Origin: Escherichia coli
GTDB lineage: Bacteria > Pseudomonadota > Gammaproteobacteria > Enterobacterales > Enterobacteriaceae
DNA: 64,000 nt
Direction: 5' to 3' (one strand)
Assembly (NCBI RefSeq): GCF_003334315.1
Contig: NZ_QOWR01000003.1
The notes under the pieces were generated by a model. The model had not been told where the DNA came from. It was given only the letters and a program-made list of their open reading frames with translations, and made no database searches. A program made the position numbers and the translations under genes. Shown in pieces: positions 351 to 48,067 of this stretch (the first letter of the stretch is position 1; each line of letters opens with the position of its first letter).

Positions 351-433
351 AGAGCTCTCTCTTAGTTTAATTTCCGCCAGGTAATCAGATGACACGATTG
401 TGCTTCACGCCATCTATTAACATGTACGTCAGT

Positions 434-462
434 ATATGGGGATGTTTCCCCCACATTCAACG
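434..462 (-). promoter_or_regulatory. Heat-shock (sigma-32) promoter of lon
   Basis: Minus strand reads GTTGAAT-N13-CCCCATAT, matching the sigma-32 consensus CTTGAAA / CCCCATNT, about 90 nt upstream of the lon ATG. Confidence 0.6.
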
Positions 463-477
463 CCGAGAATAGAGGAA

Positions 478-510
478 AAATTAAAGGGGAGATAAAATCC
501 CCCCTTTTTG
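478..510 (-). terminator. Intrinsic terminator after clpX
   Basis: GC-rich hairpin (GGGGAGAT/ATCTCCCC arms) followed by a T-rich tract on the minus strand, about 30 nt past the clpX stop. Confidence 0.55.
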
Positions 511-537
511 GTTAACTAATTGTATGGGAATGGTTAA

Positions 538-40052: not shown

Positions 40053-41348
40053 TTAATCGCTGTTTTTGGCAATTAAACGTTCCGGGATAACAAAACTGAA
40101 ACGTGTTCCTTTTCCTACTGTACTCTCAATATTCAGGCGACTTTCGTGATGATTCACCGCATGTTTCACGATCGCTAACCCTAATCCGCTACCGCCGGTT
40201 TGCCGGGAACGCGCTTTATCAACGCGATAAAAACGCTCGGTCAGGCGCGGAATATGCTCCGGTGCAATGCCCGGTCCGTTATCTTCAATGCTAAATTCGG
40301 CACCGTGCGGCACTCGCTGCCAGCGTACGGTGATATGCGTACCTTCCGGCGTATGATTCACGGCGTTATAGACCAGGTTCGAAATCGCACTGCGTAGCTG
40401 ATCTTCGTTGCCAGACACCTTGAGGCCGTTATCTATCTCAAAGGTAAATGTCTGTTTTTTCTGACTCAGAGTCTGAGCCTCGCGCTCAACAACGCGCAGC
40501 ATCATCGGCACATCAACCTTTTCATTGAGCAAATGCGTCGGTGCGGCTTCTATTTTCGACAGCGTCAGTAATTGCTTCACCAGCCCTTCCATCCGCTGGG
40601 TCTGCTCGCGCATGGTGTGCAACGCTTTTTCACGTACCGCGCCTTCCAGCGGTTGCTCATCCATCATCTCCAGGTAACCCTGTAACACGGTCAATGGCGT
40701 ACGTAACTCATGGCTCACGTTGGCAAAAAAGTTACGCCGCGCCCCTTCCAGTTGATGCATTTGCGTGACATCACGCGCCACCATCAGTAACTGTTTGTGG
40801 GTATAAGGCATGACGCGAATTTCCAGATGCCGCCCGGTGTTGAGCACCAGATTGAGCGGGCGAGAAAAATCACGCGTTTTCAAATATTGCGTAAACTCCG
40901 GGTAACGCAGCAGGTTAAGGATGTTCTGCCCGTTATCTTCCGGCCAGCGCAAACCAAGAATCTGTTGCGCCAGACCGTTACACCAGAAAATACCGCCCTC
41001 TTCCGTGGTCAGCACCACTGCGTCGGGCAGCGACTCCGCGCCGCTACGAAAGCGTTTAATCAGATTGCCCAGTTCACGGCGGCGTTTTTTATTTCGCAGC
41101 TGCATCTGGTGTAAGCCGTATAGTAGCGGCTCCCAGCTACCACGCCCCGGTGGCGGGGTCATACTACGATCCACCCACAGCCACCATGAAAGGCGCAATA
41201 AATTCCAGAAATGCCAGATAAGCAGTCCCGTTACCGATGCCAGCAAAAACCAGGGCAGGTAACCAAAAAATGCACCCAGGATGAAAGCCGGGAGGCAGCA
41301 AAGTAGCAGCTCCAGCACCAGCCTTTTCCACGACAGCCGTTCCAGCAC
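40053..41348 (-). CDS. phoR: Phosphate regulon sensor histidine kinase PhoR
   Basis: 431-aa ORF; H-box [10 protein letters not shown]; HATPase domain; downstream of phoB. Confidence 0.97.
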
Positions 41349-41405: not shown

Positions 41406-42095
41406 TTAAAAGCGGGTTGAAAAACGATATCCTGTACCGCGCACGGTCTGCACCATGCGGTCATGCCCGCCGGGCTCCAGTGCTTTACGCAGGCGACGAA
41501 TGTGGACATCGACCGTGCGGTCTTCCACATACACGTTAGTTCCCCAGACGTGGTTTAACAGCTGCTCGCGGCTGTACACGCGCTCAGGATGCGTCATAAA
41601 AAAGTGCAGCAGTTTAAATTCTGTCGGCCCCATCTCCAGTGGCTCTTCGCCCGCCATCACCCGGTGAGATGTCGGGTCGAGGCTTAGCCCCTGCATCTCA
41701 ATCACCTCTTCCACCGCCATTGGCGAAATACGGCGCATTACCGCTTTGATTCGCGCCACCAGCTCCTTCGGCGAAAACGGCTTGGTGATATAGTCATCCG
41801 CGCCGGTTTCAAGGCCGCGCACGCGATCTTCTTCTTCCCCTCTGGCGGTCAACATCACCACTGGAATATCCCGGGTCATCGACTCGCGCTTGAGGTGTTT
41901 GATGAACTGGATACCGGAGCCGCCAGGTAACATCCAGTCAAGGAGAATTAAATCCGGCCAGGGTTCATTCAGTTGATTCACAGCACTGTCATAATCTTCC
42001 GCTTCGACCGGCTGAAAGCCATTTTGTTCGAGCACGAAGCAGACCATTTCGCGAATTGGAGCTTCATCTTCTACGACCAGAATACGTCTCGCCAT
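41406..42095 (-). CDS. phoB: Phosphate regulon response regulator PhoB
   Basis: 229-aa ORF; receiver domain ([13 protein letters not shown]) plus winged-helix output domain. Confidence 0.97.
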
Positions 42096-42138
42096 GATTT
42101 GCCCTGTTGTAATAAATAGGTTGCGATCATTAATGCGA

Positions 42139-42176
42139 CGTCATTATGCGTCAGATTTATGACAGATTTATGAAAA
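42139..42176 (-). promoter_or_regulatory. Pho box of the phoBR promoter
   Basis: Minus strand reads TTTTCATAAATCTGTCATAAATCTGACGCATAATGA, tandem CTGTCAT-type PhoB sites about 45-80 nt upstream of the phoB ATG. Confidence 0.8.
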
Positions 42177-42284
42177 GCTCGTCGCACATATCTTCAGGTT
42201 ATTGATTTCCGTGGCGCAGAAAAAAGCAAATGGCACATCTGTTTGGGTATAATCGCGCCCATGCTTTTTCGCCAGGGAACCGTT

Positions 42285-43487
42285 ATGCGCATCCTTCACA
42301 CCTCAGACTGGCATCTCGGCCAGAACTTCTACAGTAAAAGCCGCGAAGCTGAACATCAGGCTTTTCTTGACTGGCTGCTGGAAACAGCACAAACCCATCA
42401 GGTGGATGCGATTATTGTTGCTGGTGATGTTTTCGATACCGGCTCGCCGCCCAGTTACGCCCGCACGTTATACAACCGTTTTGTTGTCAATTTACAGCAA
42501 ACTGGCTGTCATCTGGTGGTACTGGCAGGAAACCATGACTCGGTCGCCACGCTGAATGAATCGCGCGATATCATGGCGTTCCTCAATACGACCGTGGTCG
42601 CCAGCGCCGGACATGCGCCGCAAATCTTGCCTCGTCGCGACGGGACGCCAGGCGCAGTGCTGTGCCCCATTCCGTTTTTACGTCCGCGTGACATTATTAC
42701 CAGCCAGGCGGGGCTTAACGGTATTGAAAAACAGCAGCATTTACTGACAGCGATTACCGATTATTACCAACAACACTATGCCGATGCCTGCAAACTGCGC
42801 GGCGATCAGCCTCTGCCCATCATCGCCACGGGACATTTAACGACCGTGGGGGCCAGTAAAAGTGACGCCGTGCGTGACATTTATATTGGCACGCTGGACG
42901 CGTTTCCGGCACAAAACTTTCCACCAGTCGACTACATCGCGCTCGGGCATATTCACCGCGCACAGATTATTGGCGGCATGGAACATGTTCGCTATTGCGG
43001 CTCCCCCATTCCACTGAGTTTTGATGAATGCGGTAAGAGTAAATATGTCCATCTGGTGACATTTTCAAACGGCAAATTAGAGAGCGTGGAAAACCTGAAC
43101 GTACCGGTAACGCAACCCATGGCAGTGCTGAAAGGCGATCTGGCGTCGATTACCGCACAGCTGGAACAGTGGCGCGATGTATCGCAGGAGCCACCTGTCT
43201 GGCTGGATATCGAAATCACTACTGATGAGTATCTGCATGATATTCAGCGCAAAATCCAGGCATTAACCGAATCATTGCCTGTCGAAGTATTGCTGGTACG
43301 TCGGAGTCGTGAACAGCGCGAGCGTGTGTTAGCCAGCCAACAGCGTGAAACCCTCAGCGAACTCAGCGTCGAAGAGGTGTTCAATCGCCGTCTGGCACTG
43401 GAAGAACTGGATGAATCGCAGCAGCAACGTCTGCAGCATCTTTTCACCACGACGTTGCATACCCTCGCCGGAGAACACGAAGCATGA
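42285..43487 (+). CDS. sbcD: Nuclease SbcCD subunit D (Mre11-like phosphoesterase)
   Basis: 400-aa product [24 protein letters not shown]... from ATG at 42285; calcineurin-like motifs (DWHLG, GDVFD, GNHD). Confidence 0.95.
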
Positions 43488-46400
43488 AAATTCTCAGCCT
43501 GCGCCTGAAAAACCTGAACTCATTAAAAGGCGAATGGAAGATTGATTTCACCCGCGAGCCGTTCGCCAGCAACGGGCTGTTTGCTATTACCGGCCCAACA
43601 GGTGCGGGGAAAACCACCCTGCTGGACGCCATTTGTCTGGCGCTGTATCACGAAACTCCGCGTCTCTCTAACGTTTCACAATCGCAAAATGATCTCATGA
43701 CCCGCGATACCGCCGAATGTCTGGCGGAGGTGGAGTTTGAAGTGAAAGGTGAAGCGTACCGTGCATTCTGGAGCCAGAATCGGGCGCGTAACCAACCCGA
43801 CGGTAATTTGCAGGTGCCACGCGTAGAGCTGGCGCGCTGCGCCGACGGCAAAATTCTCGCCGACAAAGTGAAAGATAAGCTGGAACTGACAGCGACGTTA
43901 ACCGGGCTGGATTACGGGCGCTTCACCCGTTCGATGCTGCTTTCGCAGGGGCAATTTGCTGCCTTCCTGAATGCCAAACCCAAAGAACGCGCGGAATTGC
44001 TCGAGGAGTTAACCGGCACTGAAATCTACGGGCAAATCTCGGCGATGGTTTTTGAGCAGCACAAATCGGCCCGCACAGAGCTGGAGAAGCTGCAAGCGCA
44101 GGCCAGCGGCGTCACGTTGCTCACGCCGGAACAAGTGCAATCGCTGACAGCGAGTTTGCAGGTACTTACTGACGAAGAAAAACAGTTAATTACCGCGCAG
44201 CAGCAAGAACAACAATCGCTAAACTGGTTAACGCGTCAGGACGAATTGCAGCAAGAAGCCAGCCGCCGTCAGCAGGCCTTGCAACAGGCGTTAGCCGAAG
44301 AAGAAAAAGCGCAACCTCAACTGGCGGCGCTTAGTCTGGCACAACCGGCACGAAATCTTCGTCCACACTGGGAACGCATCGCAGAACACAGCGCGGCGCT
44401 GGCGCATATTCGCCAGCAGATTGAAGAAGTAAATACTCGCTTACAGAGCACAATGGCGCTTCGCGCGAGCATTCGCCACCACGCGGCGAAGCAGTCAGCA
44501 GAATTACAGCAGCAGCAACAAAGCCTGAATACCTGGTTACAGGAACACGACCGCTTCCGTCAGTGGAACAACGAACCGGCGGGTTGGCGTGCGCAGTTCT
44601 CCCAACAAACCAGCGATCGCGAGCATCTGCGGCAATGGCAGCAACAGTTAACCCATGCTGAGCAAAAACTTAATGCGCTTGCGGCGATCACGTTGACGTT
44701 AACCGCCGATGAAGTTGCTACCGCCCTGGCGCAACATGCTGAGCAACGCCCACTGCGTCAGCACCTGGTCGCGCTGCATGGACAGATTGTTCCCCAACAA
44801 AAACGTCTGGCGCAGTTACAGGTCGCTATCCAGAATGTCACGCAAGAACAGACGCAACGTAACGCCGCACTTAACGAAATGCGCCAGCGTTATAAAGAAA
44901 AGACGCAGCAACTTGCCGATGTGAAAACCATTTGCGAGCAGGAAGCGCGCATCAAAACGCTGGAAGCTCAACGTGCACAGTTACAGGCGGGTCAGCCTTG
45001 CCCACTTTGTGGTTCCACCAGCCACCCGGCGGTCGAGGCGTATCAGGCGCTGGAGCCTGGCGTTAATCAGTCTCGATTACTGGCGCTGGAAAACGAAGTT
45101 AAAAAGCTCGGTGAAGAAGGTGCGACGCTACGTGGGCAACTGGACGCCATAACAAAGCAGCTTCAGCGTGATGAAAACGAAGCGCAAAGCCTCCGACAAG
45201 ATGAGCAAGCACTTACTCAACAATGGCAAGCCGTCACGGCCAGCCTCAATATCACCTTGCAGCCACTGGACGATATTCAACCGTGGCTGGATGCACAAGA
45301 TGAGCACGAACGCCAGCTGCGGTTACTCAGCCAACGGCATGAATTACAAGGGCAGATTGCCGCGCATAATCAGCAAATTATCCAGTATCAACAGCAAATT
45401 GAACAACGCCAGCAACTACTTTTAACGACATTGACGGGTTATGCACTGACATTGCCACAGGAAGATGAAGAAGAGAGCTGGTTGGCGACACGTCAGCAAG
45501 AAGCGCAGAGCTGGCAGCAACGCCAGAACGAATTAACCGCGCTGCAAAACCGTATTCAGCAGCTGACGCCGATTCTGGAAACGTTGCCGCAAAGTGATGA
45601 ACTCCCGCACTGCGAAGAAACTGTGGTATTGGAAAACTGGCGGCAGGTACATGAACAATGTCTCGCATTACACAGCCAGCAGCAGACGTTACAGCAACAG
45701 GATGTTCTGGCGGCGCAAAGTCTGCAAAAAGCCCAGGCGCAGTTTGACACCGCGCTACAGGCCAGCGTCTTTGACGATCAGCAGGCGTTCCTTGCGGCGC
45801 TAATGGATGAACAAACACTAACGCAGCTGGAACAGCTCAAGCAGAATCTGGAAAACCAGCGCCGTCAGGCGCAAACTCTGGTCACTCAGACAGCAGAAAC
45901 GCTGGCACAGCATCAACAACACCGACCTGACGACGGGTTGGCTCTCACTGTGACGGTGGAGCAGATTCAGCAAGAGTTAGCGCAAACTCACCAAAAGTTG
46001 CGTGAAAACACCACGAGTCAAGGCGAGATTCGCCAGCAGCTGAAGCAGGATGCAGATAACCGTCAGCAACAACAAACCTTAATGCAGCAAATTGCTCAAA
46101 TGACGCAGCAGGTTGAGGACTGGGGATATCTGAATTCGCTAATAGGTTCCAAAGAGGGCGATAAATTCCGCAAGTTTGCCCAGGGGCTGACGCTGGATAA
46201 TTTAGTCCATCTCGCTAATCAGCAACTTACCCGGCTGCACGGGCGCTATCTGTTACAGCGCAAAGCCAGCGAGGCGCTGGAAGTCGAGGTTGTTGATACC
46301 TGGCAGGCAGATGCGGTACGCGATACCCGTACCCTTTCCGGCGGCGAAAGTTTCCTCGTTAGTCTGGCGCTGGCGCTGGCGCTTTCGGATCTGGTCAGCC

Positions 46401-46630
46401 ATAAAACACGTATTGACTCGCTGTTCCTTGATGAAGGTTTTGGCACGCTGGATAGCGAAACGCTGGATACCGCCCTTGATGCGCTGGATGCCCTGAACGC
46501 CAGTGGCAAAACCATCGGTGTGATTAGCCACGTAGAAGCGATGAAAGAGCGTATTCCGGTGCAGATCAAAGTGAAAAAGATCAACGGCCTGGGCTACAGC
46601 AAACTGGAAAGTACGTTTGCAGTGAAATAA
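43484..46630 (+). CDS. sbcC: Nuclease SbcCD subunit C (Rad50-like SMC ATPase)
   Basis: 1048-aa ORF; Walker [10 protein letters not shown], long Q/E-rich coiled coil with central CPLCG zinc hook, signature LSGGESF and Walker B LFLDEGF; ATGA overlap with sbcD. Confidence 0.97.
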
Positions 46631-47940: not shown

Positions 47941-47967
47941 GTTATAGTCTCGGTGCTCATTACTTAT

Positions 47968-48067
47968 TGCCGGATGCGGCGTGAACGCCTTATCCGCCCT
48001 ACGCGGTTCTGGCACATTTTGCAGGCCTGATAAGACGCGGCAAGCGTCGCATCAGGCATGATGCGCC
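47968..48067. repeat. Two REP elements (BIME)
   Basis: TGCCGGATGCGGCGTGAACGCCTTATCCGCCCTAC and GCAGGCCTGATAAGACGCGGCAAGCGTCGCATCAGGCATGATGCGCC between the convergent araJ and mak ends. Confidence 0.85.

Follow-up and report, generated by a model that had tools for sequence, protein, structure and literature searches.

The divergent phoBR and sbcDC operons of Escherichia coli share one intergenic region, and this region contains a Pho box. The question that arises is whether PhoB bound at this site acts on both promoters or only on that of phoB. The locus is a textbook one and already known, and the hypothesis that PhoB regulates sbcDC is already entered in RegulonDB; at least three genome-wide tests bear on it, of which the better-resolved ones find no regulation. 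We approached the question in a window of 64,000 nucleotides, this being the whole stretch of DNA that was analysed. The positions of the genes, the box and the −10 hexamers and their conservation come from the present analysis; the transcription start sites, the PhoB occupancy and the unchanged expression of sbcD are taken from published work.

The window is E. coli chromosome. Its segment 41300–43600 shows 100% DNA identity to several RefSeq genomes and is found in 5425 of 5426 complete E. coli genomes, and through this DNA identity the four genes are the annotated E. coli PhoR, PhoB, SbcD and SbcC. On the minus strand, the response regulator gene phoB (41406..42095; 229 amino acids; the ATG is the reverse complement of 42093–42095) is followed by the second gene of phoBR, the sensor kinase gene phoR (40053..41348), as given by both the list of open reading frames and the RefSeq annotation of the identical stretch. 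On the plus strand, sbcD (42285..43487; 400 amino acids) starts with the ATG at 42285, which is also the start in RefSeq, and its product shares 99.75% identity with the sbcD translation from the matching RefSeq genome. The following sbcC (43484..46630, plus strand; 1048 amino acids) has a 4-bp overlap with the sbcD stop, consistent with a single sbcDC operon for the SbcCD hairpin nuclease. The boundaries in RefSeq agree exactly with those of the original prediction, which gave the phoB start at 42095 (minus strand), the sbcD start at 42285 (plus strand) and the shared spacer of 189 bp between them (42096–42284; 42% G+C).

As a Pho box we accepted two 7-bp direct repeats with a 4-bp A/T spacer, and thus an 11-bp period, that fit the consensus CTGTCATAWAWCTGTCAY, and such a box is present in the spacer. 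The consensus matches the minus strand at 42176..42159 and at 42165..42148 with two mismatches each, the second match being an overlapping register displaced by one 11-bp unit downstream. The only other match in the 64-kb window is the Pho box of phoA; these three matches compare with 0.16 expected from shuffled sequences, and none of 100 shuffles reached three. The activation Pho box of phoB, TTTTCATAAATCTGTCAT, spans 18 bp on the minus strand (42159..42176; 22 bp with the trailing AAAT included) and contains the 11-bp unit CAGATTTATGA twice in exact tandem.

The transcript of phoB starts at a G at 42136 and has a leader of 41 nt (42096..42136, minus strand). This start is the single one entered for phoB in the table of Kim 2012 (PMC3415461), at position 416325 (+) of MG1655 with 18 reads and a 41-nt leader, and the 50-mer upstream of it is identical to the reverse complement of 42136–42186 of the window. 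Relative to this start, the −10 hexamer CATAAT (42148..42143, minus strand) lies at −12 to −7 and the activation box at −40 to −23. The box takes the place of a −35 element, leaves 10 bp between its end and the −10, and faces phoB, and its position and orientation for phoB are therefore canonical.

In the segment 42139–42158, next to the activation box, a third and degenerate repeat is accompanied by the phoB −10 and by a low-affinity auto-repression site for PhoB that covers this −10. We place the latter on the plus strand at approximately 42137..42157, where two CGTCA tracts (42139–42143 and 42149–42153) suggest its borders. Two half-sites on the antisense strand around the phoB −10 have been described with a Kd of 4.9 µM, and their mutation abolishes repression (Gao & Stock 2018). 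The span 42139–42176 had been put forward as the Pho box. It does contain the box, as both consensus matches confirm, but the activation box occupies only 42159–42176 and the full span is better named as all of the PhoB-contacted DNA of the phoB promoter.

No difference is seen from the phoBR promoter of E. coli K-12. The two promoters agree in the 50 nt that precede the start, in the start itself, in the −10 and in both antisense half-sites, the 18-bp motif is the one called there in ChIP-chip and ChIP-seq, and they are the same locus in different E. coli strains. The Pho box of phoBR is reportedly due to Makino et al. 1986. In the mechanism that we propose, phosphorylated PhoB would bind the direct repeats of the box at −40 to −23 in place of a −35 element and recruit sigma-70 RNA polymerase to the CATAAT −10, and at high PhoB levels the weak second site over the −10 would serve to repress the phoB promoter.

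Two further sequences around phoB resemble PhoB sites. The first, ATTCACAGCACTGTCATA, lies inside the phoB coding sequence in antisense orientation (41976..41993, plus strand), outside the intergenic control region, and has its own ChIP-seq peak (417245, score 5; Fitzgerald 2023, PMC10294691, Table 1). It is not followed by a good −10 at the canonical spacing, and the starts listed near it by Kim 2012 (PMC3415461) are sense starts with only 2 reads. The second is the half-site-like decamer TGTAATAAAT (42108–42117, plus strand), which lies at +19 to +28 relative to the phoB start, on the strand opposite to the transcript, and is complementary to the units of the Pho box (inverted repeats I1/I2). 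Neither Citrobacter nor Enterobacter conserves it, and it is probably there by chance.

For sbcD, too, Kim 2012 (PMC3415461) enters a single start, at position 416200 (−) of MG1655 (29 reads; leader of 24 nt), and the 50-mer that precedes it, GTGGCGCAGAAAAAAGCAAATGGCACATCTGTTTGGGTATAATCGCGCCCA, recurs unchanged at 42211–42261 of the window. The start is the A at 42261, and the leader (42261..42284, plus strand) carries the Shine–Dalgarno sequence AGGGAA at 42274–42279. This table is the only start-site data set used here for E. coli and derives from cells that were not phosphate-starved, and an additional, starvation-specific sbcD promoter closer to the Pho box is possible. The −10 hexamer of the mapped promoter is a perfect TATAAT (42248–42253, plus strand; 6/6) at −13 to −8. 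It is followed by the G+C-rich discriminator CGCGCC. A hexamer scan finds no recognisable −35, the best candidate being AGCAAA at 42225–42230 (2/6), and an A-tract is located at 42220–42225, about −41 to −36. The sbcD promoter is thus a weak promoter dominated by its −10. A scan of 41800–42600 for consensus promoters returns no sigma-70 promoter, and a −35 is lacking in both the phoB and the sbcD promoter.

Several other features of this segment were considered and set aside. A longer mechanical open reading frame of sbcD begins with TTG at 42243, and we reject this start because it lies upstream of the mapped transcription start. A terminator-like match at 42244–42261 is not a terminator but the segment of the sbcD promoter from −10 to +1. 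The core of the sbcD promoter is flanked, from about −40 to +9, by a perfect 8-bp inverted repeat, AAAAAGCA/TGCTTTTT (42221–42228 and 42262–42269), and the spacer also contains a 27-nt direct repeat of 70% identity. Being short, A/T-rich and not conserved in other genera, both repeats are judged to be probably chance occurrences.

With both starts placed, the relative geometry of the two promoters can be described. The starts at 42136 (minus strand) and 42261 (plus strand) are divergent, back to back and 125 bp apart. All PhoB sites fall between −40 and −3 of phoB, equivalent to −85 to −122 of sbcD, and they face away from sbcD. The activation box itself is at −85 to −102 of the sbcD start and in the opposite orientation, which is not a canonical arrangement for sbcD. 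From the nearest edge of PhoB-contacted DNA, at 42176, it is 72 bp to the sbcD −10 and 85 bp to the sbcD start, and occlusion of the sbcD promoter is for this reason not geometrically plausible. The PhoB sites do not overlap or adjoin the core (−60 to +20) of both promoters. Nominal polymerase footprints from −55 to +20 would likewise not overlap, occupying 42191..42116 at phoB and 42206..42281 at sbcD. With the sites 85–122 bp upstream of its start and oriented towards phoB, PhoB would be expected neither to occlude nor to activate the sbcD promoter.

A weaker action of PhoB at this distance has to be considered, in which PhoB, from the shared Pho box, weakly and directly represses sbcDC, which would then count as a minor Pho-regulon member. 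Such repression could operate by hindering upstream contacts of polymerase at the sbcD promoter, of the α-CTD/UP-like kind, or by competition from the polymerase that is strongly recruited to the phoB promoter. The absence of a −35 together with the A-tract suggests that the sbcD promoter may indeed depend on upstream contacts, but at 85 bp upstream of the start the edge of the PhoB sites is past the usual reach of the α-CTD (about −60).

The conservation of the spacer was examined next to that of the gene order. A PhoB-based scan with one genome per species gave 80 loci, from Enterobacterales out to Firmicutes. Among these, only the loci of Citrobacter, Enterobacter and Photorhabdus encode SbcD upstream of phoB in divergent orientation, and it is absent from the 2.5 kb upstream of phoB in Arsenophonus, Vibrio, Shewanella, Pseudoalteromonas, Pseudomonas and the other loci. 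K. pneumoniae has the gene order and the phoB start of E. coli; the start-site table for this species includes a start for phoB and has no entry for sbcD.

In alignments of the four taxa from E. coli to Photorhabdus, two islands of the spacer are conserved. One is a block of about 36 bp that spans Pho box and phoB −10 (TTCATAAATyTGTCAyAAAwCTGACGCATAATG). The second is the −10 of sbcD, kept as TATAATC in Citrobacter, Enterobacter and Photorhabdus along with the ribosome-binding region and at a constant distance of 37–38 bp from the ATG. The sequence between the islands (42177..42247 in the window), which includes the poor −35 region of sbcD, is unconserved and variable in length, and the Pho box is separated from the sbcD −10 by 73 bp in E. 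coli, 74 bp in Citrobacter, 84 bp in Enterobacter and 141 bp in Photorhabdus. Among these four taxa, the Pho box therefore keeps neither a conserved spacing nor a conserved phase relative to the sbcD promoter. Two islands separated by a variable gap are the pattern expected of two independent promoters and not of one site that acts on both, and the unconserved spacing also speaks against weak repression of sbcD from the Pho box.

Published binding and expression data are in conflict on whether both transcripts respond to loss of PhoB. In the study of Yang 2012 (PMC3465305), one ChIP-chip peak was assigned to both phoB and sbcD, with log2 changes of +8.52 for phoB and −0.64 for sbcD, the latter being 1.56-fold lower expression with PhoB activity. 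The motif centre is given there as 72.5 bp upstream of the phoB ATG and 117.5 bp upstream of sbcD, and both distances agree with the coordinates in the window. An sbcD::luciferase plasmid moreover differed significantly between the wild type and phoB::Km (Yang 2012, PMC3465305). It is because of this study that RegulonDB lists sbcC and sbcD as PhoB targets, and peak, expression change, reporter and database entry all favour weak repression. The 1.56-fold effect comes, however, from a microarray of the phoB::Km strain and the reporter from a multicopy plasmid, and the ChIP-chip study has since been rated as low-resolution (Fitzgerald 2023, PMC10294691).

The later studies of higher resolution report binding without regulation. 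ChIP-exo detected PhoB binding, but sbcC and sbcD showed no differential expression by RNA-seq and no iModulon membership, and they were classed as 'hypothetically functional binding genes' (Choudhary 2020, PMC7657598). ChIP-seq gave a peak at 417093 (score 11) labelled 'sbcD/phoB' (Fitzgerald 2023, PMC10294691, Table 1). RNA-seq in the same study, at a single condition with both strains at OD 0.5–0.7 in 0.2 mM phosphate, counted 274 reads for sbcD and 32,731 for phoB in the wild type, and 271 and 34 (the last value marked with an asterisk) in Δ-phoB. Expression of phoB thus changes about 1000-fold and that of sbcD stays the same.

The interaction in RegulonDB coincides with the original prediction in the PhoB site, in the divergent neighbour and in the idea put forward. 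Against it stand the later binding data just described and the location of the site at −85 to −102 of the mapped sbcD start, which is not a position typical of a repressor. Overall, weak direct repression of sbcDC by PhoB appears unlikely to us. For the original prediction, the divergent arrangement around a PhoB site is real, and occlusion or influence on sbcD finds no support in the geometry, the conservation or the best of the expression data. The sbcD promoter lies clear of the PhoB sites, with its start at 42261 and its −10 72 bp from 42176, and expression of sbcD is independent of phoB in the RNA-seq counts and in Choudhary 2020, the small effect (log2 −0.64) in the microarray and reporter study of Yang 2012 being the one deviation.

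Deletion of phoB removes PhoB binding and firing of the phoB promoter together, and the unchanged sbcD reads therefore argue not only against occlusion but also against competition by polymerase and against coupling through supercoiling. In the last of these, strong transcription from the phoB promoter during phosphate starvation would under-wind the 125-bp segment between the starts and thereby stimulate or alter the sbcD promoter. The back-to-back starts and the approximately 1000-fold induction of phoB make such coupling conceivable, and in a twin-domain model the CGCGCC discriminator could render melting sensitive to superhelicity. It is largely excluded by the identical sbcD mRNA levels with the phoB promoter on (32,731 reads) or off (34), and the discriminator is not conserved in Citrobacter, Enterobacter or Photorhabdus. 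We regard it as extremely improbable.

The most satisfactory description, which we hold to be very probable, is that of two independent, non-overlapping back-to-back promoters whose adjacency is a lineage-specific gene order of Enterobacterales with no demonstrated regulatory consequence. The sbcD promoter would function on its own, from a perfect TATAAT without a −35, on the other strand, 125 bp away and with a leader of 24 nt, and the phoB promoter would fire without a measurable change in sbcDC mRNA.

Two other spacers in which one PhoB site is situated between divergent genes, phoE/proB and cusR/cusC, allow a comparison (Fitzgerald 2023, PMC10294691). The phoE/proB pair behaves like phoB/sbcD, with phoE regulated about 1000-fold and proB essentially unaffected (6,306 versus 4,330 reads). 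For cusR/cusC, the change in cusC is significant (208 versus 50 reads, the latter value again marked with an asterisk) and cusR shows a smaller, non-significant drop (391 versus 239), which places this pair nearer than phoB/sbcD to a shared control region. The PhoB site upstream of sbcD serves one promoter only, like that between phoE and proB. A transcription-factor site in a shared intergenic region should hence not be read as evidence that both neighbours are regulated.

Independent promoters are compatible with an indirect effect of phosphate on sbcDC, which would be an extension of that explanation. If phosphate starvation affects sbcDC at all, the effect would most likely run through general starvation and RpoS and not through the Pho box: the anti-adaptor IraP would stabilise RpoS and an RpoS-dependent rise in sbcDC would follow, with the Pho box uninvolved. 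The gene for IraP is present in the window (57489..57749, minus strand) next to phoA. Reportedly, IraP stabilises RpoS in phosphate starvation (a finding credited to Bougdour et al. 2006) and sbcDC transcription depends on starvation and RpoS (credited to Darmon et al. 2007, J Bacteriol 189:6686), and the two together make an indirect, PhoB-independent effect of phosphate plausible. Both strains compared by Fitzgerald 2023 were in low phosphate, and dependence on phosphate itself falls outside that comparison. The −10 context of sbcD (G at −13, TATAAT), on the other hand, bears no sigma-S signature such as a C at −13, and our literature search found no data for sbcD in high versus low phosphate. 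The same search returned nothing further on sbcDC with phoB, promoter, RpoS or starvation. We put the chance that phosphate acts on sbcDC by this indirect route at slightly under even.

A more specific variant would be a modest tuning of sbcDC, by PhoB bound at the Pho box or by very heavy polymerase traffic from the phoB promoter, in stationary phase or when phosphate starvation is prolonged. The setting would be one in which RpoS drives the sbcD promoter while PhoB~P is maximal. Such tuning would link phosphate starvation to the processing of hairpins and palindromes and to the formation of double-strand breaks, and it would explain the persistence of the phoB–sbcD adjacency from Escherichia to Photorhabdus. 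We consider it very unlikely.

The phoA end of the window offers a separate observation. The Pho box of phoA, CTGTCATAAAGTTGTCAC (57451–57468, minus strand), is 63–80 nt upstream of the GTG of phoA at 57388 and begins only 21 bp past the iraP stop codon. The adjoining positions of box and gene place two branches of the response to phosphate starvation side by side.

Within E. coli, 5051 of 5425 complete genomes carry the phoB–sbcD spacer at 99% identity or more. One deviating genome (NZ_OZ039171.1, 1162923–1163300) lacks exactly one 11-bp unit of the Pho box, the equivalent segment of the window being 42152–42173. In it, TTTTCATAAAT[CTGTCATAAAT]CTGACG is collapsed to a single unit and the spacer is reduced to 178 bp. 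This deletion is found in at most 4 of 5425 genomes, those in the matching identity band, and an assembly error is possible for the genome in question. To judge from its sequence, the change looks like slippage between direct repeats, and by shifting or abolishing the activation site it should impair auto-induction of phoBR.

A search of the whole window at the Rfam gathering threshold gives no match in or near the phoB–sbcD spacer. Its sole match is the small RNA sraA (422–517, plus strand; 106.7 bits) between lon and clpX. In the araJ–mak intergenic region (47962–48059), the window is about 104 bp shorter than the otherwise collinear NZ_CP104618.1, and the alignments overlap. By its sequence, the region resembles REP/BIME palindromic units, and the length difference is probably one of repeat copy number between strains.
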